Under the pieces are notes generated by a model that saw only the letters and a list, made by a program, of their open reading frames with translations, did not search any database and was not told the DNA's origin. 64,000 nucleotides of DNA from an uncultured Parachlamydiaceae bacterium (GTDB taxonomy: Bacteria > Chlamydiota > Chlamydiia > Chlamydiales > Parachlamydiaceae): contig CAVULX010000003.1 in NCBI GenBank assembly GCA_963742415.1, positions 800,001 through 864,000 of the forward strand, read 5' to 3'. Within the stretch, counting starts at the first letter, position 1; each line of letters starts with the position of its first letter. Shown one piece after another: positions 6,975-13,866 of this stretch. The position numbers and the translations under genes were made by a program.

Positions 6975-7294
6975 TGGGGAGATTCCTCTAAAGTCAAAGG
7001 AGGGGGTTCCGGTAAGGTAATCACACTGGAAGTATAGGGGTATTTGAGATGGGTAAATTCAGGTCTTCGTGATAATTCCATCAAATGGATCGGATTTTCG
7101 AACCGGTCAATTTGGAATTGCAGTCGGGCGTTTTCTTCTTGAATGCCTTTCACTTCTTTTTGTAAGGAGGGAAGAGCGAGTCGCAATTCGACGAGTTCAT
7201 TTTGCTTATCGATGTAAGCATACAGGGTCCATCCAATCGCAAAGATGCAGATCAAAACACGCAGACTGGTCCAAAGGGTGTTTGATGCTCTCAT
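6971..7294 (-). CDS. ftsL: FtsL-like cell division protein
   Basis: Small TM plus coiled-coil protein between rsmH and ftsI with overlapping start/stop codons. Confidence 0.7.
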   Translation of the reverse strand: MRASNTLWTSLRVLICIFAIGWTLYAYIDKQNELVELRLALPSLQKEVKGIQEENARLQFQIDRFENPIHLMELSRRPEFTHLKYPYTSSVITLPEPPPLTLEESPQ

Positions 7295-8226
7295 AATTTT
7301 TCTATCACCCGAAGTTTTGCACTCCGGCTCCGGGGGTTCCGTTCTATTTCTGAGGCGTTGGCAATGACAGGTTTTTTTGTGATCACCTTGATCGAAGGGG
7401 GTTTATCCCGAAATAAGCCCCCTAAACCCGAGGTGTCCTCTTTATCGGAAGCTTCATACTGAAAAAAATGTTTCACAATCCGATCCTCTAAACTATGAAA
7501 ACTTATTACAGCTAGTCTCCCCCCTTGCCTTAAGCTTTTCAACGCTTGAGGCAGGACGGCGCGCAATGCCTCCAGCTCCCCATTGACAAAAATCCGAAGT
7601 CCTTGAAAGACAAGAGTAAGTGGATTGATATCCTTTTTTGCTCTCCGCTTTAATATCGGATATAACGTATCAGCCAAATCTTTCGTCGTCTGAAAGGGCT
7701 TCTTTTCCCTCCTTTTGACGATAGTTCTTGCCGCAAGCTTCCACTGCTTTTCTTCCCCATAATCACGTAAAATTTTCCCAATTTCAACCTCGGACCAAGT
7801 ATTGATAACGACTGCAGCGGTCAAGGGGTTGTCGGGATCCATCCTCATGTCTAAAGGTCCTTCATGCATAAAACTGAACCCTTTTTCAGGCATGTTTAAC
7901 TGCATAGATGAAACCCCCAAATCGATTAAAATTCCATCCAAGGGAGGGAGGTTTAAGGAACCCAAAATTGTATGGAAATCACGAAAGTTTCCAGGGATGA
8001 AGGTCGACTTTTCCTTCCATGGCAGGAGTTGTTGCATGGCGATTTGACGGGCGGCAGGATCTTGGTCGATCCCAACAAATCGGACGATCTCAGGATGGGA
8101 AGTCAATAGGGCTTTGGCATGGCCCGCCGCACCTAGAGTGCAATCAACAAAAGTGGGAATCTGAAGGTCTTTGAAAAAAAAGAGAATTTCATCAAGAAGA
8201 ACAGGAGTATGAGCCGATGATGACAT
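7291..8226 (-). CDS. rsmH: 16S rRNA m4C1402 methyltransferase
   Basis: HTPVLL, DCTLGAAGHA, DLGVSSMQL, GPLDMRMD, ISFHSLEDRIVK, NPRSRSAKLR. Confidence 0.96.
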   Translation of the reverse strand: MSSSAHTPVLLDEILFFFKDLQIPTFVDCTLGAAGHAKALLTSHPEIVRFVGIDQDPAARQIAMQQLLPWKEKSTFIPGNFRDFHTILGSLNLPPLDGILIDLGVSSMQLNMPEKGFSFMHEGPLDMRMDPDNPLTAAVVINTWSEVEIGKILRDYGEEKQWKLAARTIVKRREKKPFQTTKDLADTLYPILKRRAKKDINPLTLVFQGLRIFVNGELEALRAVLPQALKSLRQGGRLAVISFHSLEDRIVKHFFQYEASDKEDTSGLGGLFRDKPPSIKVITKKPVIANASEIERNPRSRSAKLRVIEKL

Positions 8227-8300
8227 AAAGAAAACCTTACCAAAATATCTAATAGTTGATAAAATTAATATGTGGAGTTGGTACTCTTAATCGAGGTGAT

Positions 8301-8750
8301 ATGGCTACTATTGACAAATTAGATTTAAGTGTCTACAACCTTTATGCCATTCGCACCAAAATGATCGAACAGATCGAGGAGCAGATCCCGATTGCCAAGG
8401 CGGGAACCATCCCTCCTCATACGACGATTTTTGGGACTTTCCAACAGTTGACTGAAATCGATATCCTCCTTGGCGTTGTTCCATTGTTTACCCCTTGGGC
8501 TTATTTTTACCCCCCAAAAAATTTTCGTAACCAAAGGCGTTCATCTTTTGCTTTTTATAGGGTCGCACCTTCTCTGGGATCCTTCAAAGAACAAGAAGAG
8601 GAAGAAGCGCGTTTAGCTGCCATCCCATGTGCAAACCCCCAAGAAGAAGCACAAAAAGCATCCCTAACCTCTTGTTTCAAAATGATCAGTAAGCTGAATG
8701 GATGGCTCAGTTTCATTGTTGGACGCGTCGGCCAGTTCCTACAAGGGTAA
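8301..8750 (+). CDS. Conserved chlamydial hypothetical protein (CT273-like by synteny)
   Basis: ATG at 8301 after GAGGTG; divergent from rsmH and upstream of a TPR gene, as in Chlamydia. Confidence 0.65.
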   Translation: MATIDKLDLSVYNLYAIRTKMIEQIEEQIPIAKAGTIPPHTTIFGTFQQLTEIDILLGVVPLFTPWAYFYPPKNFRNQRRSSFAFYRVAPSLGSFKEQEEEEARLAAIPCANPQEEAQKASLTSCFKMISKLNGWLSFIVGRVGQFLQG

Positions 8751-8757
8751 TCTGTAG

Positions 8758-9153
8758 ATGAGTACAAAAAATTGGCTTCAGGAATTGGGATGGAATGAAG
8801 AGCAGGTTGAAGATCTCCGTTTCACAGGGTTTGCTTACATTCGACAAGGTAAGTACGATATAGCTTTGCCTTTCTTCGAAGCCCTTGTCGTCTTAGAGCC
8901 TGAAAGCTCTTACGACGCCCAAACTTTGGGCGCCCTTTATCTCCAACTTAACAATCCTGTAAAGGCTTTAAAGGCCATCGATAAAGCTCTTAAATTGGAC
9001 GCCGATCATGCACCTACCCTCCTCAATTTGACGAAAGCCCTCCTTATGTTGGGGCGGACGGACGATGCTTTAAAACTCGCCAATATCCTTAAAAATGAAC
9101 AAGATCCGATGATTTCCAATATCGCTAAAGCCCTGATTTTAGCTTGGAGTTAA
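8758..9153 (+). CDS. TPR protein, putative type III secretion chaperone (CT274-like)
   Basis: TPR-like helices (GFAYIRQGKYDIALPFFEAL; LGALYLQLNNPVKALKAIDKAL); synteny. Confidence 0.75.
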   Translation: MSTKNWLQELGWNEEQVEDLRFTGFAYIRQGKYDIALPFFEALVVLEPESSYDAQTLGALYLQLNNPVKALKAIDKALKLDADHAPTLLNLTKALLMLGRTDDALKLANILKNEQDPMISNIAKALILAWS

Positions 9154-9173
9154 CAACTCAGGTTATAACAGCA

Positions 9174-9222
9174 AGAAAGCCAAAAACCACAGCGATTGCG
9201 TCTCTGTGGTTTTTGGCTTTCT
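9174..9222. terminator. Hairpin between convergent genes, likely bidirectional terminator
   Basis: 19-bp perfect inverted repeat agaaagccaaaaaccacag / ctgtggtttttggctttct with 11-nt loop. Confidence 0.7.
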
Positions 9223-9251
9223 CTGATTTTCTATTTTTCCATTATCTACGA

Positions 9252-10007
9252 TCATTCTCGATTGGCTGCAGAACGCTTGTCTTTCATCTTTTGGTAAACA
9301 AGACGAACAGCTAAGTTTTTATCTGATAAAGCGCATTTTCCTCGCCCTTTACAGGCGCTTTGGCCAGCACAGTTATTGTTACTGCTTCGGCAGGCATTTA
9401 AATGGGAACAGACATTCGTCGCAGCACAACGGGTACTCGCCACCTGTAAAGCTAAAGCTTTACCTGCGGGTGAAAGGCTTTCATAGAGTTTGATTCCATC
9501 TTTGTTGAGTTCTAGCTTGAGCTCTTCTTCCGACATCAAATGATAACCTAAATTACCATCGTTAGGATCACTGTTGGAGTCAGAATTGTTTGAATTGCCG
9601 CCAGAATTTTTATCAAGATTTTTAATTGGCAACTTGGTTTGGGTAGGGTCCCGATCGGCGATGCTGCCGCATCCATGGCTGCAACTGTGATCCCATGCTG
9701 GGGCGTTGCGATCGGCGATGCTGCCGCATCCATGGCTGCAACTGTGATCCCACGAAGGGGCGCCACGGTTGCCTAGGCTGCCGCACCCATGGCTGCAACT
9801 GTGATCCCAGGAAGGGTTGCTTGAGTCTGCTAAGCCTGGACATCCATTTTTCCCTTTGCATGCATGCTTTGTCGCTGCCGCAAGCATTTGACCTGACACC
9901 GGATTATCGCTGCTTTCATCGGCAAATGCCGCACCGGTTTGACTTGATATAAACAGTCCGCTCGCCATTCCCATTAAGGCTAAATTTTTCAAATCCCGTT
10001 TTTTCAT
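9252..10007 (-). CDS. Secreted Cys/His-rich repeat protein (putative RiPP precursor or metal-binding protein), paralog 1
   Basis: Signal peptide MKKRDLKNLALMG...AAFA, RBS AGGAG, 3x WDHSCSHGCGS, C-terminal CAATNVCSHLNACRSSNNNCAGQSACKGRGKC. Confidence 0.8.
   Translation of the reverse strand: MKKRDLKNLALMGMASGLFISSQTGAAFADESSDNPVSGQMLAAATKHACKGKNGCPGLADSSNPSWDHSCSHGCGSLGNRGAPSWDHSCSHGCGSIADRNAPAWDHSCSHGCGSIADRDPTQTKLPIKNLDKNSGGNSNNSDSNSDPNDGNLGYHLMSEEELKLELNKDGIKLYESLSPAGKALALQVASTRCAATNVCSHLNACRSSNNNCAGQSACKGRGKCALSDKNLAVRLVYQKMKDKRSAANRE
9652..9816 (-). repeat. Coding tandem repeat, about 3 x 57 bp
   Basis: Unit containing gctgccgcatccatggctgcaactgtgatccca (+ strand) at 57-bp spacing. Confidence 0.9.
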
Positions 10008-10037
10008 TGAAGTAACTCCTTGTGTTGCAGGGGACTA

Positions 10038-10074
10038 TTCCATGAGAACCGGCCCTAAAGCCGGTTCCATGGAA
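10038..10074 (-). terminator. Hairpin between the two Cys-rich paralogs (weak terminator or mRNA-stabilising stem)
   Basis: ttccatgagaaccggc...gccggttccatggaa imperfect inverted repeat; no clear U-tail on the minus strand. Confidence 0.45.
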
Positions 10075-10087
10075 ATTTTAGTTTTGA

Positions 10088-11125
10088 TTACTTTGTATTC
10101 ATCATGGCACGCTTATCAGCCATTTTTTTAGCTGCTACTTTCACAGCTAAATTTTTGTCTTTAAAAGCGCATTTGCTTTGTCCAGCGCATCCAGCCATTC
10201 CAGCGCAGGAATTTTTATCTGTCCTGCAAGAATTTAATCCTTTGCAATCATTTTTTCCTTTGCAGGAGGAGCTAGCAAGTTTAAGAGCTAAAGCTTGGCC
10301 TTCTGGACTCAATTTGTTGAAGGCGTCTTTTCCTTCGTCATTGAGTTGATCCACCAATTGATCTTTGGTCAATTGAGTAGATTGGCCGCTTTTTGCTTCC
10401 CCGTTGGTTTGCGCGGTGAAAGTACGGCTTCTATAGGACCTATAGCTGTTGGGATTGTCACTTCCTGGGGTTTGGTTTGGTTTTCCTGTCCCTGTGCCTG
10501 TGCCGCTAGAGGAGTTGTCGTCATCGTTTTGTGCTGTCAATGAATTACGGCGGTTATTGTAGCTTGTTGGGCTGTTGCTTTGAGGTTGAGATTGATTGTC
10601 TGGCATCATCTTTTGAGGCATTGGAGGATATGTCTGAGGCTTGTTCCCTTCACCTGTTTGGGGAGGTTGAGGTTGATAGCCATTGTATCCTTGCTGGCGG
10701 GGATAATTACCGGAACCCATGCTGTTGCAGCCTTGGCTGCCAGAGTAATAGCCGCCGGAACCCATGCTGCTGCAGCTGTGGCCGCCGGAGTAATAGCCGC
10801 CGGAACCCATGCTGCTGCAGCTTTGGCCGCCAGAGTAATAACCGCCAGAACCCATGCTGCTGCAGCTATGGCTGCCAGAGTAATAGCCGCCGGAACCCAT
10901 GCTGCTGCAGCCTTGAGTACTTCCGGAATAATATCCACCATCATAGTATCCGCCACCGCCAGAAGATTGCCCGTGGCACCCATGCATCCCTCCACAACTT
11001 CCCCCAGCAAGCAATTGCTCAGTAACTAGCCCTTCGGTTTGCTCAGCTTGCAATGCTCCTTGTGTCATTAGTATGCCCCCGGTAATCCCCAGAAGGGCCA
11101 ACTTTTTCATATCTTTCTTTTTCAT
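10088..11125 (-). CDS. Secreted Gly/Ser/Tyr/Cys-rich repeat protein (putative RiPP precursor or metal-binding protein), paralog 2
   Basis: Signal peptide MKKKDMKKLALLG...ALQA, RBS GAGGAG, 5x SGGYYSG..xCSSMG, C-terminal CKGKNDCKGLNSCRTDKNSCAGMAGCAGQSKC. Confidence 0.8.
   Translation of the reverse strand: MKKKDMKKLALLGITGGILMTQGALQAEQTEGLVTEQLLAGGSCGGMHGCHGQSSGGGGYYDGGYYSGSTQGCSSMGSGGYYSGSHSCSSMGSGGYYSGGQSCSSMGSGGYYSGGHSCSSMGSGGYYSGSQGCNSMGSGNYPRQQGYNGYQPQPPQTGEGNKPQTYPPMPQKMMPDNQSQPQSNSPTSYNNRRNSLTAQNDDDNSSSGTGTGTGKPNQTPGSDNPNSYRSYRSRTFTAQTNGEAKSGQSTQLTKDQLVDQLNDEGKDAFNKLSPEGQALALKLASSSCKGKNDCKGLNSCRTDKNSCAGMAGCAGQSKCAFKDKNLAVKVAAKKMADKRAMMNTK
10709..10940 (-). repeat. Coding tandem repeat, about 5 x 45 bp
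   Basis: Unit ~gagtaatagccgccggaacccatgctgctgcagc (+ strand) at 45-bp spacing. Confidence 0.9.
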
Positions 11126-11346
11126 AAACGAACTCCTCTTTAGTTATTTTGCTATTCAAAAAAAAATCACATGCAAGGATATAAAAAAATATCTATCATT
11201 ATTTGTAGTCTAAAGCAAGAAATTTTTGAAAAAATGATCTATGAGAATCTTTTTGCGTCTTCTCCTAAATTTTAAGTTTTATGAATACTTGGTAATTCGT
11301 TAAAATATGAAGAACATTGAAAATTTGTTAAATTATTAGAGGAAAA

Positions 11347-13866
11347 GTGAACCAATACTTAACTTATATAGGAATTTTCTTAGCGTTTGTAACTTTTCAG
11401 ATGAAAAGCAATGCAAACGAAGACTTTACTTCAATGCTTAAAGTAAGACAGCCCAATTGGCAGATGGAAATAGTGGATTTTTATTCTAATGGCGCACCCA
11501 AACAAGTCATTTTCTTTGAACCTCTTCCTGAAAAAGCAGCCGGGTCTCCCGTCAAAAGCTTAGCATTCACTTTACAAGGCCACCTCCTCTCTGAAACAGA
11601 TTTAACGGCCGCCTCGGATCCCTCCCATCCTATTCCCCATGGATCCAGTGTCACTTTCAACCTCAATGGAGAAATAGAAAAAGTTGAATCCTACCGCGAA
11701 GGGATTTTAGAAGGACTTGCAAAGGCCTATTATTTGACAGGAGTTTTGAAGGAATCAAGCCTTTATCATAAAGGAAAATTAGAGGGTCTGGTGGAATCCT
11801 TTTATGAAAACGGTAAACTCAAAGAAAAAAGGAATTACGTAGAAGGAAAAAAGCAAGGGCCTTCCGAATATTTTTATGAAAATGGAACAATGTCAGCATC
11901 TTATAACTTCGAAAACGGACTCTTAGAAGGGGAATCGAAAGAATGGGACGAAAATGGTGCCATCAAAGCGGTTTCCTATTATCAGCATGGGCTGCTTAAC
12001 GGTGATCACACACACCCCGCCCAGACGCTTTACTATCCCGATAAGACCATTGCTGAACAGCAAGATTTCCGACAAGGGATCCCTATTGGGAAGCATGAAC
12101 GCTTTTACCCCAATGGAAATCCCCGCTATTATGCTTTTTATCTCCTAGGGAAAAAAGAGGGACGCGAGCAAGAACTTTTTGAAGATGGGACTGTGGGTTT
12201 GGAAGGCACTTATCACCAAGGCCTGCCGATCAATCACCATACAAAAAAGGATCCCAATGGAAAGCTGTCTTTTGCCGCACACTATGACCATGAAGGCAAT
12301 CTCATAGAACCTATTAAGGAATATGATGAAGAGGGGCATCTCGTATTGCAATATGAGATGAAAGAGGGAAAATATCATGGAGCCTTTTACGAATGGTATC
12401 CCTCAGGCGAAAAAAAACGGCAATATTATTATCTTCTGGGAGAATGGGATGGGGAGCAGCGGGAGTATTATCCATCCGGTCAATTAAAGACTTCCGCTTT
12501 CTACAGCCAAGGATATAAACAGGGCGATTACGCTGAGTGGCATAAAGGGGGCGGGCAAGCCTTAAAAGCAACCTTCAAAAAAGGGAAAAAAGAAGGGCCT
12601 ATACTTTCTTGGCACCCCAACGGCACTAAAGCTTCCGAAGCTTTTTTTGTAAGAGGAAAAGAGGAAGGTGCATGGAAGGAGTGGGATGCCAACGGTCAGC
12701 TTATCCTGTCCGCAGAGTATAACAAAGGGCGGAGGCACGGACGGGTTCAAATTTGGAATTCAAAAGGGGCTTTACTCTTTGAAGCGAATTTCATTCAAGG
12801 GCAACCCGTGGGAGTGGTAAAAGAATGGGGTGAAAATGGTTCTTTAAAAAGGGAAGCAACCTACAAAGAAGGTCTATTGGAAGGGAAGGAGAAATTATTC
12901 CATGTCAATGGCAAACCAACTTTGGAAGCCGACTACCTCAAAGGATTGCGTCATGGGGATTATTTGACCTGGTACGAAGATGGAACGCCTTACCAGATAC
13001 GTCGTTATGATCACGGGACTTGCTTAGGGGAGCAAAAAGAATTTTATCCCTTGGCTCAAGAGGGGGGATCGCAGCACCTTGCAAAAAATCTTTTTTATAA
13101 AGATGGAAAGCTCCACGGGGAACAAAAAACCTATTTCCCCGATGGGACAGTCAAAGTGCTTATGAATTATGACAACGGCTTATTAGATGGCAGAAAAGCT
13201 ATTTGGGATGAGAAAAATAAATTGAAAGAGGAAGCCTTTTATAAAAAGGGAAAACTCGATGGCAAATACTTTGCTAGAAAAGAAAATGGGAGCGAAGTGA
13301 TTTACCATTACAAAGATAATCTCCTTCACGGCTTGCACCAAGTATTTTTCCCTCCCCATCCCACGTTGGGAAAAATCAAAGCCCTTGAAGCCTATTTTGA
13401 AAATGGATTGCTTGAGAAGGAGGCTATCGAATTCAACCCATCAGGAATAAAAATAGGGAGTTCTTTTTACCACAAAGGGCTTAAAGAAGGAATTACAGCG
13501 GTCTTTAATGAAGAAGGGCGGATCCTTCTTCAAATCGAATTTGCTGATGGAAAACAGTCGGGCATGAGTTATGAATATTTTCCTAATGGAAAGATCCATA
13601 AGACGGCGACGTTTGTTCATGGATTAAAAGAAGGGGAAGAGAAGGTCTATCATGAAAATGGACAGCTTGCATCCCAAAGATCCTACAGCAAGGGGCTTCA
13701 GCATGGATTGTCTCAAGAATGGAATACATTCGGCATTTTAGTATTTGAAGGCTCCTACGATGAAGGAAAGAGGCACGGTAAATTTAATAAATACGATGAT
13801 CAAGGGCGCCCCTTGGTTTTGCAGATATTTGATCATGATAAATTAATTGAAAAAAACAAAAATTAA
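11347..13866 (+). CDS. Exported MORN-variant repeat protein (YwqK-like)
   Basis: N-terminal hydrophobic signal, then many ~24-aa repeats of type YYENGKLKE..Y..GK..G over ~800 aa. Confidence 0.85.
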   Translation: MNQYLTYIGIFLAFVTFQMKSNANEDFTSMLKVRQPNWQMEIVDFYSNGAPKQVIFFEPLPEKAAGSPVKSLAFTLQGHLLSETDLTAASDPSHPIPHGSSVTFNLNGEIEKVESYREGILEGLAKAYYLTGVLKESSLYHKGKLEGLVESFYENGKLKEKRNYVEGKKQGPSEYFYENGTMSASYNFENGLLEGESKEWDENGAIKAVSYYQHGLLNGDHTHPAQTLYYPDKTIAEQQDFRQGIPIGKHERFYPNGNPRYYAFYLLGKKEGREQELFEDGTVGLEGTYHQGLPINHHTKKDPNGKLSFAAHYDHEGNLIEPIKEYDEEGHLVLQYEMKEGKYHGAFYEWYPSGEKKRQYYYLLGEWDGEQREYYPSGQLKTSAFYSQGYKQGDYAEWHKGGGQALKATFKKGKKEGPILSWHPNGTKASEAFFVRGKEEGAWKEWDANGQLILSAEYNKGRRHGRVQIWNSKGALLFEANFIQGQPVGVVKEWGENGSLKREATYKEGLLEGKEKLFHVNGKPTLEADYLKGLRHGDYLTWYEDGTPYQIRRYDHGTCLGEQKEFYPLAQEGGSQHLAKNLFYKDGKLHGEQKTYFPDGTVKVLMNYDNGLLDGRKAIWDEKNKLKEEAFYKKGKLDGKYFARKENGSEVIYHYKDNLLHGLHQVFFPPHPTLGKIKALEAYFENGLLEKEAIEFNPSGIKIGSSFYHKGLKEGITAVFNEEGRILLQIEFADGKQSGMSYEYFPNGKIHKTATFVHGLKEGEEKVYHENGQLASQRSYSKGLQHGLSQEWNTFGILVFEGSYDEGKRHGKFNKYDDQGRPLVLQIFDHDKLIEKNKN

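Follow-up and report, generated by a model that had tools for sequence, protein, structure and literature searches.

A Parachlamydiaceae genome carries two candidate precursors of a divergent Buf2-type bufferin branch, probably matured there in trans

Bufferins and captophorins are among the most numerous classes of RiPPs. The described system closest to the locus studied here is bufferin 2 of Caulobacter vibrioides, BufA2-BufB2-BufC2 (Buf2, BUF_6/12Cys), in which the gene for a Sec-signal precursor precedes those for the MNIO (DUF692) enzyme BufB and its DUF2063 partner BufC. The precursors of Buf_EGKCG/oxazolin (HvfA) and of fontiphorin carry short Cys repeats in multiple copies behind a signal peptide and can be as long as 506 aa (PMC12452194). 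Bufferin precursor genes that stand alone, or in tandem, have also been documented, for example in Legionella pneumophila, a bufferin-rich species, and modification in trans was suggested by the authors; in their table of fully assembled genomes (over 40,000 mined), 0 of 864 Buf2 genomes was without an MNIO (PMC12452194). Among the rows listed in the genome table of that survey are two Protochlamydia (one of them P. amoebophila), Parachlamydia acanthamoebae, Waddlia chondrophila and a Neochlamydia, each with one DUF692 gene, one DUF2063 gene and zero Buf1, Buf2 or EGKCG precursors (PMC12452194). Our full-text literature searches found no description of chlamydial bufferins or captophorins.

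The window, by which we mean the whole 64,000-nucleotide stretch of Parachlamydiaceae DNA analysed, contains two minus-strand genes for secreted, Cys-rich proteins. The first of the pair, at 10088..11125, encodes P0002 (345 aa, 13 Cys), the type 2 precursor paralog; the second, at 9252..10007, starts 80 nt downstream of it and encodes P0001 (251 aa, 14 Cys), the type 1 paralog. The N-termini, MKKRDLKNLALMG and MKKKDMKKLALLG, have a K/R-rich start, and aa 9-20 form a hydrophobic segment whose 12 residues have a mean Kyte-Doolittle value of 2.04 in P0001 and 2.17 in P0002; in the AF2 model, P0001 forms a helix at aa 3-16. Read by eye and from hydrophobicity, the putative signal peptides comprise aa 1-29 of P0001 (9921..10007, cleavage AFA/DE) and aa 1-27 of P0002 (11045..11125, K-rich start, cleavage LQA/EQ), which gives both proteins the Sec signal peptide that characterizes BufA2. 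Downstream of the signal, an '..LA..' motif is followed by a first Cys pair, C50-KGKNG-C56 in P0001 (9840..9860) and C44-x5-C50 in P0002 (10976..10996), the latter preceded by 'LLAGG'.

Each protein then carries a tandem cassette of its own, identified with Tandem Repeats Finder and built on Cys in CS/CG contexts. The P0001 cassette, WDHSCSHGCGS x3 (9652..9816; 57 bp x 2.9 copies, 87% matches), has a 19-aa unit with two Cys and two His, while that of P0002, GGYYSG..SCSSMGS (10710..10915; 45 bp x 4.6 copies, 90% matches), consists of four to five 15-aa units with one Cys each (C73, 88, 103, 118, 133). The C-terminal domain is common to both proteins (aa 158-251 of P0001, 9255..9536; aa 252-345 of P0002, 10091..10372), with 42/92 identities (46%, E 1e-25) by BLASTP. 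It holds a six-Cys block of identical spacing, C-x5-C-x5-C-x6-C-x5-C-x5-C, at aa 194-225 of P0001 (nt 9333-9428), between three short helices and a long C-terminal helix, and at aa 288-319 of P0002 (nt 10169-10264), likewise between helices and a C-terminal helix. Five of the block Cys are invariant in 150 sequences, and the sixth is variable. The AF2 model of the P0001 domain, built with 150 sequences, has a mean pLDDT of 78.4, with 84-97 in the helices and 59-65 in the Cys block. Thus, the secreted tandem paralogs, their common six-Cys block and the cassette that differs between them, all of which the first-pass annotation had read from the letters, were borne out. A promoter/terminator scan of 9000-11400 returned 2 and 2 sites where 3.5 and 3.6 were expected, and hence no signal of either kind.

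The sole family matched by P0001 and P0002 was NCBIfam NF050166 (BufA2), at 34.9 and 31.4 bits. As neither reaches the curated cut-off of 60, the two proteins are not equivalogs. The match nevertheless runs ungapped over the six-Cys block (43 residues of P0001 on model positions 27-69, 40 of P0002 on 29-68), a feature shared with the C. vibrioides system, and both proteins contain the six conserved Cys of the BufA2 core. The BufA2-type resemblance proposed in the first-pass annotation therefore stands across the Cys block and falls short in score. NF050166 was also the only family matched by 30 of the 31 members of the precursor family (best E 9.2e-12), and the bufB-adjacent precursors of other chlamydial families match it in 12/12 cases, at 16.9-47.4 bits. 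In our reading, the family is most likely a divergent, unannotated chlamydial branch of the known Buf2-type bufferin/captophorin precursors, and the earlier designation as a new system was too strong. Its distance from bufferin 2 is visible in the architecture as well as in the score below cut-off. The BufA2 core has 61 aa. The chlamydial proteins have 251 and 345 aa, with the Cys block C-terminal and flanked by conserved helices, and they have gained a Cys-pair module near the N-terminus as well as the tandem cassettes.

With regard to other precursor types, neither protein gave a Pfam DUF2282 row (Buf1, four conserved Cys) at E<=1, and the Pfam scan, chlamydial envelope families included, returned nothing at E<=1 beyond chance level. 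Lipoprotein-type precursors make up ~16% of Buf2 (PMC12452194). We considered this type and dropped lipid anchoring for P0001 and P0002, because their first Cys, at aa 50 and aa 44, lies 24-30 residues past the hydrophobic stretch, too distant from it. In homologs from other chlamydial families, the hydrophobic region does end in a true lipobox Cys.

The 64-kb window contains no MNIO gene. The genome's only MNIO, and only PF05114 match (344.6 bits), is located at ~232.7 kb of contig C2, while the precursors are on contig C3. It exceeds the cut-off of NF050167 (BufB; 320.2 bits vs 310) and stays below that of HvfB (243.6 vs 360). Directly after bufB, and overlapping its end, follows a DUF2063 partner (PF09836, 47.8 bits, cut-off 27.2; PF22106, 27.1, cut-off 27), which scores 28.6 vs 142 against the HvfC equivalog. 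The genome thus encodes one BufB and one BufC, the same combination of an MNIO above the BufB cut-off and a DUF2063 partner as in C. vibrioides. This makes a maturase acting in trans possible, as the first-pass annotation had anticipated, and its suggestion to look for DUF692/DUF2063 genes elsewhere in the genome led to one of each, both on contig C2. There is no precursor gene beside bufB-bufC on that contig. An NF050166 scan of the genome found BufA2-like sites in the two window ORFs only, by a route that is insensitive for this short family, since it was silent even in the Caulobacter control; no other genome ORF combines a signal with the N-terminal module. DoxX is present in two genome copies, neither adjoining bufBC nor the precursors. 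A predicted complex of BufB, BufC and P0001 aa 145-251 scored 0.00, a value that counts neither for nor against an interaction.

Chlamydial BufB is highly conserved (78% mean column identity), and 17/19 sequences have Asp after the conserved E-W-D, where the solved DUF692 structure 3bww has Phe. One study reports that MNIOs acting on Cys-Lys precursors have Asp there and those of the Lys-Cys type Phe (PMC13097082). In this reported specificity residue, chlamydial BufB resembles the enzymes of Cys-Lys captophorins. Cys-Lys pairs are scarce in the P0001 block, with one CK and one CR among six Cys, which speaks against the assignment. The chlamydial proteins share with Buf_EGKCG/HvfA and fontiphorin the repeated Cys units in a signal-peptide precursor and the MNIO-DUF2063 pair. 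Unlike Buf_EGKCG/oxazolin (HvfA), both translations are free of E-G-K-C-G repeats, and the accompanying BufB is under the HvfB cut-off, with Asp instead of Phe at the specificity site.

The genomic context of relatives connects the two loci. In 21/24 related chlamydial loci, bufB-bufC lies downstream of the precursor homologs, in 20 of them directly, within ~135 nt; this adjacency, the precursor-bufB-bufC order of C. vibrioides, is absent in the present genome. The conserved order in relatives is MORN - type 2 - type 1 - bufB - bufC - rsmB. The divergent neighbour of the pair in the window, at 11347..13866 on the plus strand, encodes an 839-aa MORN_2-repeat protein (PF07661, 172.3 bits); a MORN_2 homolog is found upstream of the precursor genes in 12/24 related loci, and this conserved gene serves as a marker for the left flank of the cluster in its ancestral form. 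The window retains MORN and both precursors, and contig C2 retains bufB-bufC-rsmB behind pseC. By synteny, the break falls precisely between precursor and bufB, in the same place as in the nearest relative (L005/G355), and bufBC is intact in both genomes with the split. By gene order, the stand-alone state of the precursors goes back to a single rearrangement common to the two genomes. They resemble the documented stand-alone bufferins in being unlinked to the MNIO gene and in tandem, and differ from them in that the split can be traced to a breakpoint.

Since the split, the C-terminal domains have accumulated pN of 0.19 and 0.18 vs saturated pS of 0.76 and 0.71, values that show continued purifying selection on both precursors. 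All six block Cys are retained in P0001, in its L005 ortholog and in P0002; in the type 2 ortholog from the nearest relative, the sixth has been lost. In the tree, P0001 pairs with its L005 ortholog (100/93) within the type 1 clade (97/99), and P0002 with its own L005 ortholog (98/94) outside that clade. We rejected the idea that the pair arose by recent tandem duplication, because the two genes belong to different, well-supported lineages. Two old paralogous precursors per cluster, and a cluster split in the present genome, are further differences from bufferin 2.

The family is large. Among 1.84 billion proteins, its profile matched 546 cluster representatives (50% identity) at E<=1e-3, of which 154 reached E<=1e-30, so the pattern is not due to chance; members are annotated 'hypothetical protein' by current annotation models. 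In the phylum-level genome search, every listed row belonged to the window's own order. Chlamydial genomes were searched for family and maturase, as had been proposed: BufB was present in 93/94 genomes with a family match at E<=1e-10, against a background of 148/401 sampled genomes of the order, with counts that are inflated by shared ancestry. Of 48 genomes sampled from the family to which the window belongs, 47 have BufB, and the precursor family was not found in 30/30 sampled genomes of a small-genome family (f35).

Taken together, we consider it probable that P0001 and P0002 are precursors of a chlamydial bufferin-type RiPP system (Buf2-like, 'Cys-Lys captophorin'), matured in trans. Our model suggests that each precursor would be made with a Sec signal peptide and that BufB and BufC would oxidize cysteines to 5-thiooxazole rings before or during export; since bufBC is on another contig (G000:C2), we infer that this maturation occurs in trans. 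The C-terminal domain would be a small helical scaffold presenting the six-Cys loop, and the N-terminal Cys-pair module and the tandem copies would supply further Cys/His sites. In the periplasm, the mature proteins may bind copper, perhaps along with further soft metals, and could thereby buffer metal stress in the vacuole of the amoebal host. The identity of the modified cysteines, the formation of thiooxazoles and the binding of copper are predictions. If this holds, the 546 cluster representatives would supply the precursors missing from the survey of chlamydiae, and the presence of BufB in nearly all sampled genomes of the family would suggest that the buffering of copper in the periplasm is conserved among amoeba-associated chlamydiae, in parallel with the bufferin-rich L. 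pneumophila (PMC12452194). The clean precursor/enzyme split, the old paralogs, the amplified Cys cassettes and the block-less variants also offer natural experiments on substrate recognition.

The block-less variants bear on what BufB modifies. We examined eight genomes of the same family that have BufB and no strong family match. In six of them, the protein encoded next to bufB retains a signal peptide, the flanking helices and an N-terminal 'LA..GC..C' module, with 1-2 Cys in total, and is without the Cys block. Among these proteins are those of L030 and L031, with 132-137 aa, and a 210-aa protein of L029 with a single Cys. The six proteins form one clade (95/95), and BufB of these genomes is intact (75-80% identity). 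Type 2 paralogs of other lineages (L011) have lost the whole block as well. Because the block is lost while BufB persists in six genomes, it is not the only possible substrate and is perhaps not essential. The MNIO might accordingly act on the N-terminal Cys-pair module and the cassette copies only, with the C-terminal helices docking BufBC and the six-Cys loop serving, optionally, to bind metal or form disulfides. The module, present in 74/145 signal-bearing family proteins, is indeed the unit that is amplified, and it is the helices that are modelled with confidence (pLDDT 84-97). We regard this alternative as unlikely, as it leaves aside that the BufA2 match falls on the block and that its five Cys are invariant across the 150 sequences; in a crude split, moreover, 25/44 type 1 members are without any N-terminal Cys. 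Docking of the helical domain to BufBC is a supposition, and the module could stem from a lipid-anchor site rather than a core, a possibility raised by the true lipobox position of the first Cys in other chlamydial families.

Chlamydial envelopes depend on disulfide-linked Cys-rich proteins, and P0001 and P0002 are, like OmcA/OmcB, secreted, Cys-rich and chlamydial. The proteins might then be unmodified, either plain Cys/His periplasmic metal sponges or OmcA/OmcB-like disulfide-cross-linked proteins of the elementary-body envelope. Their separation from bufBC in the present genome would agree with this, cassettes with Cys and His such as WDHSCSHGCGS can bind metals without modification, and unlinked precursors may be 'not modified' (PMC12452194). 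Against it stand the adjacency to bufBC in nearly all related loci, the co-occurrence with BufB, the intact bufBC in both split genomes and, unlike what an OmcA/OmcB relationship would suggest, the lack of any envelope-family match above chance and the failure to find the family in the sampled f35 genomes. We therefore judge the unmodified state improbable; the OmcA/OmcB-like alternative in the first-pass annotation, unsupported by the family scans, could still describe an added role. Hardly credible is that the pair is a decaying relic of the rearrangement, with BufBC serving another substrate. The sixth Cys missing from the nearest relative's type 2 ortholog and the block loss in L011 would fit decay, but both ORFs are intact with 6+6 block Cys, pN is low against a saturated pS, and the genome has no other ORF with a BufA2-like block or with signal and N-terminal module.

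Tentatively, and as a possibility only, the Parachlamydiaceae precursor may be a modular 'RiPP protein' whose C-terminal helices dock BufB/BufC and whose true evolvable substrate is the N-terminal Cys-pair module, in 1-6 copies and swapped between orthologs. Amplified forms of the module are DHACKGKGGCG x3 (P0004), CGGKSGCGGAVAGN x5 (L009) and DHGCKGKGGCG x5 (L020). Such a modular precursor would place the recognition element C-terminal to multi-copy cores, would be a natural case of an MNIO kept for a one- or two-cysteine substrate, and would explain why published surveys show the enzyme pair without a precursor in cultured chlamydiae.

Structure-based searches gave no named relative. Foldseek of the C-terminal domain model against PDB had 0 matches at E<=0.001, the family profile gave a chance row only against PDB sequences (E 0.92), and the best ESM Atlas score for the domain was 0.80, to unnamed clusters within chance range; a wide VIA-align search with the full-length model reached Z 5.0 at best, all with generic helical bundles. 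The Cys block had no tblastn match in plasmids. A word-based search of the block against shorter proteins yielded 15 matches, 13 unnamed and 2 named as chlamydial 'hypothetical protein'. Among sequencing runs, none was listed for RNA, and three soil-metagenome DNA runs had small shares.

The pair consists of two open reading frames on the minus strand of the window: P0002, the type 2 precursor paralog (345 aa, 10088-11125), and, 80 nt downstream, P0001, the type 1 paralog (251 aa, 9252-10007). Both N-termini read as a K-rich stretch with a 12-residue hydrophobic segment. BLASTP revealed a common C-terminal domain of 92 aa (42/92 identical, E 1e-25), in which both proteins carry the spacing C-x5-C-x5-C-x6-C-x5-C-x5-C. 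The central tandem repeats found with Tandem Repeats Finder are 57 bp x 2.9 copies (WDHSCSHGCGS) in P0001 and 45 bp x 4.6 copies (GGYYSG..SCSSMGS) in P0002. The observation made in the first-pass annotation, tandem secreted paralogs with a shared C-terminus and differing repeat cassettes, is thus confirmed, and its interpretation as a whole is supported.

A Pfam scan of the two proteins gave no match above chance. NCBIfam returned a single family for each, BufA2 (NF050166), at 34.9 and 31.4 bits, both below the curated cut-off of 60 bits, and the match spans the entire Cys block ungapped. BufA2 was also the sole NCBIfam match of 30/31 proteins in alignment A1, and all 12 bufB-adjacent precursors examined from other chlamydial families matched it alone (16.9-47.4 bits, again below the cut-off). 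The resemblance noted in the first-pass annotation is therefore real, and the family is, judged by sequence, a divergent relative of BufA2 and not an equivalog. A full HMMER search recovered 546 cluster representatives at E<=1e-3, with lengths of 92-435 aa among the 150 matches listed. The bufB-adjacent genes of the other chlamydial families (L040-L051) encode short precursors (122-173 aa) with the same helix/Cys-block/helix domain; in several, a true lipobox (e.g. ..LLGGC, ..LAGGC) ends the hydrophobic region of the signal.

Bufferins are described as having a 61-aa BufA2 core, a Sec signal that is dispensable for modification, 5-thiooxazoles and a role in copper stress (10.1101/2024.03.18.585515). 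Buf2 precursors span 51-367 aa, both tandem and stand-alone precursor genes are documented, and the genome table of the same source includes at least five Parachlamydiales genomes with one DUF692, one DUF2063 and no precursor of the Buf1, Buf2 or EGKCG families (PMC12452194). Full-text literature searches for DUF692 or bufferins with chlamydiae returned only the 2024 bufferin paper and unrelated items.

Within the window genome (2.69 Mb, 4 contigs), PF05114 has one match only, on contig C2. This MNIO scores 320.2 bits against a BufB cut-off of 310, and a DUF2063 protein gene (bufC) directly follows it. No precursor-like ORF lies adjacent to the C2 bufB; the NF050166 genome scan found BufA2-like places at the two window ORFs only. 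The maturase that had been suggested to act in trans now has a candidate. On C2, bufB (L004 7618-8502, minus) is preceded, at a distance of 23 nt, by the gene for a PseC-like sugar aminotransferase (8526-9716, minus; TIGR03588 397.6 bits, below the cut-off of 423.5), and rsmB is downstream. After the rearrangement, the bufB-bufC pair probably depends on the promoter of the PseC-like gene.

Scanning species-representative genomes with a sequence pattern yielded 24 related loci, by record title 20 chlamydial (Parachlamydiaceae, Waddliaceae and others) and four "uncultured bacterium". Downstream of the precursor homolog, 21 of them carry bufB and bufC, 20 of these within about 135 nt; L005, L006 and L011 have neither within 6 kb. 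The recurrent order is a divergent MORN-repeat gene, type 2 precursor, type 1 precursor, bufB, bufC and rsmB. The window retains the MORN gene and both precursors, while C2 retains bufB-bufC-rsmB, placing the breakpoint exactly between precursor and enzyme gene. The MORN_2-repeat protein (839 aa, 11347-13866, plus, 172 bits) is a conserved divergent neighbor in 12/24 loci. Across the breakpoint, the genes for a DUF5399 protein (153 bits), a TPR protein of 131 aa and RsmH (8256-9153, plus; 7291-8226, minus) keep the gene order of the nearest relative, at 70%, 84% and 65% identity. Since this relative (L005, genome G355) shows the same division, with about 218 kb between the halves and pseC again before bufB, the split is one older event. 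In the C-terminal domains of the two orthologous pairs, synonymous change since the split is saturated (pS 0.76 and 0.71), and pN is 0.19 and 0.18.

Among 401 sampled genomes of the order, which are mutually related so that counts describe a pattern and not a statistical test, 148 carry BufB (47/48 within the window's own family) and 120 match the precursor profile at E<=1e-3. At E<=1e-10, BufB is present in 93/94 profile-positive genomes, the lone exception being a 370-contig assembly; 55 BufB-positive genomes have no strong profile match. The most likely reading of P0001 and P0002 is that they are the two precursors of a Buf2-like bufferin system of chlamydiae, its enzyme genes having been relocated by a rearrangement. 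Homology, synteny and constraint lead us to infer that modification occurs in trans, that it yields thiooxazoles and that the products bind copper. Genomes of other chlamydial families (G017, G024, G107) carry 3-5 BufB-like genes (five in G017, one with an internal TGA), which suggests MNIO cluster expansions outside Parachlamydiaceae.

The tree of 37 C-terminal domains placed P0001 and its L005 ortholog inside the type 1 clade (97/99*), and P0002 and its ortholog outside, with other type 2 proteins. The two are therefore an old paralog pair, and a recent duplication was rejected. Type 2 proteins are marked by extended Q/N/Y/S/G-rich regions bearing single-Cys "HGCG/SGCG" units, and their block frequently holds just five Cys. 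A "..LA..C-x2-6-C" module follows the signal peptide in 74/145 signal-bearing proteins, and several type 1 proteins have cassettes built from tandem copies of this module. Cassettes differ even between P0001 and its ortholog P0003, which fits the "swappable" cores proposed earlier.

The split locus, the cassettes and block-less relatives are of most interest for how the enzyme finds its cysteines. Eight genomes from the window's family that carry BufB, chosen for a weak or absent precursor profile match, were inspected. In six of them, the gene immediately before an intact bufB (L029 1754-2386, L030 1584-1982, L032 984-1832, L036 1708-2337; L031 2239-2652 and L033 2154-2984, both minus) codes for a protein with a signal peptide, the N-terminal module, a low-complexity stretch and C-terminal helices without the Cys block. 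These proteins form one clade (95/95*), each with just one or two Cys across its mature length; one or two further tandem genes upstream encode the same module with low-complexity bodies. In the other two genomes, only the N-terminal module is recognizable. Of all the results, these variants speak most clearly against simply equating the block with the core. Because of them, we weighed the less likely alternative that only the N-terminal Cys-pair module and its tandem copies are the MNIO target, the helical domain docking BufBC; in a related, also less likely reading, the precursor would have become a modular RiPP whose amplified module is the true substrate. MNIOs for Cys-Lys precursors are reported to carry Asp at a site that is Phe in Lys-Cys enzymes, and in models this Asp contacts the substrate Lys (PMC13097082). 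The window genome's BufB aligns "E-W-D-D" to "E-R-D-F" of the solved DUF692 structure 3bww, and 17/19 chlamydial BufB have Asp at this site. The family consensus block is C-K rich; P0002 has CK, CK and CR contexts, P0001 only one CK and one CR.

AlphaFold2 predicted the N-terminal two thirds of full-length P0001 (31 sequences) as disordered. For the C-terminal 107 aa (150 sequences; mean pLDDT 78.4, pTM 0.70), four helices (pLDDT 84-97) were modeled with the Cys block as a loop (59-65), which would fit a segment ordered by modification or metal. Fold and PDB profile searches found no solved structure resembling the P0001 model or the C-terminal domain.

Since several precursors of other chlamydial families have their first Cys within a true lipobox, the N-terminal module may have descended from a lipid-anchor site. 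A lipobox was rejected for P0001 and P0002, where the first Cys lies too far, 24-30 residues past the hydrophobic region. At L011 (5371-6192) and L019 (4733-5158), the type 2 paralogs are strongly diverged, the former without any block Cys and the latter on a very long branch, and the adjacent type 1 copy is canonical.
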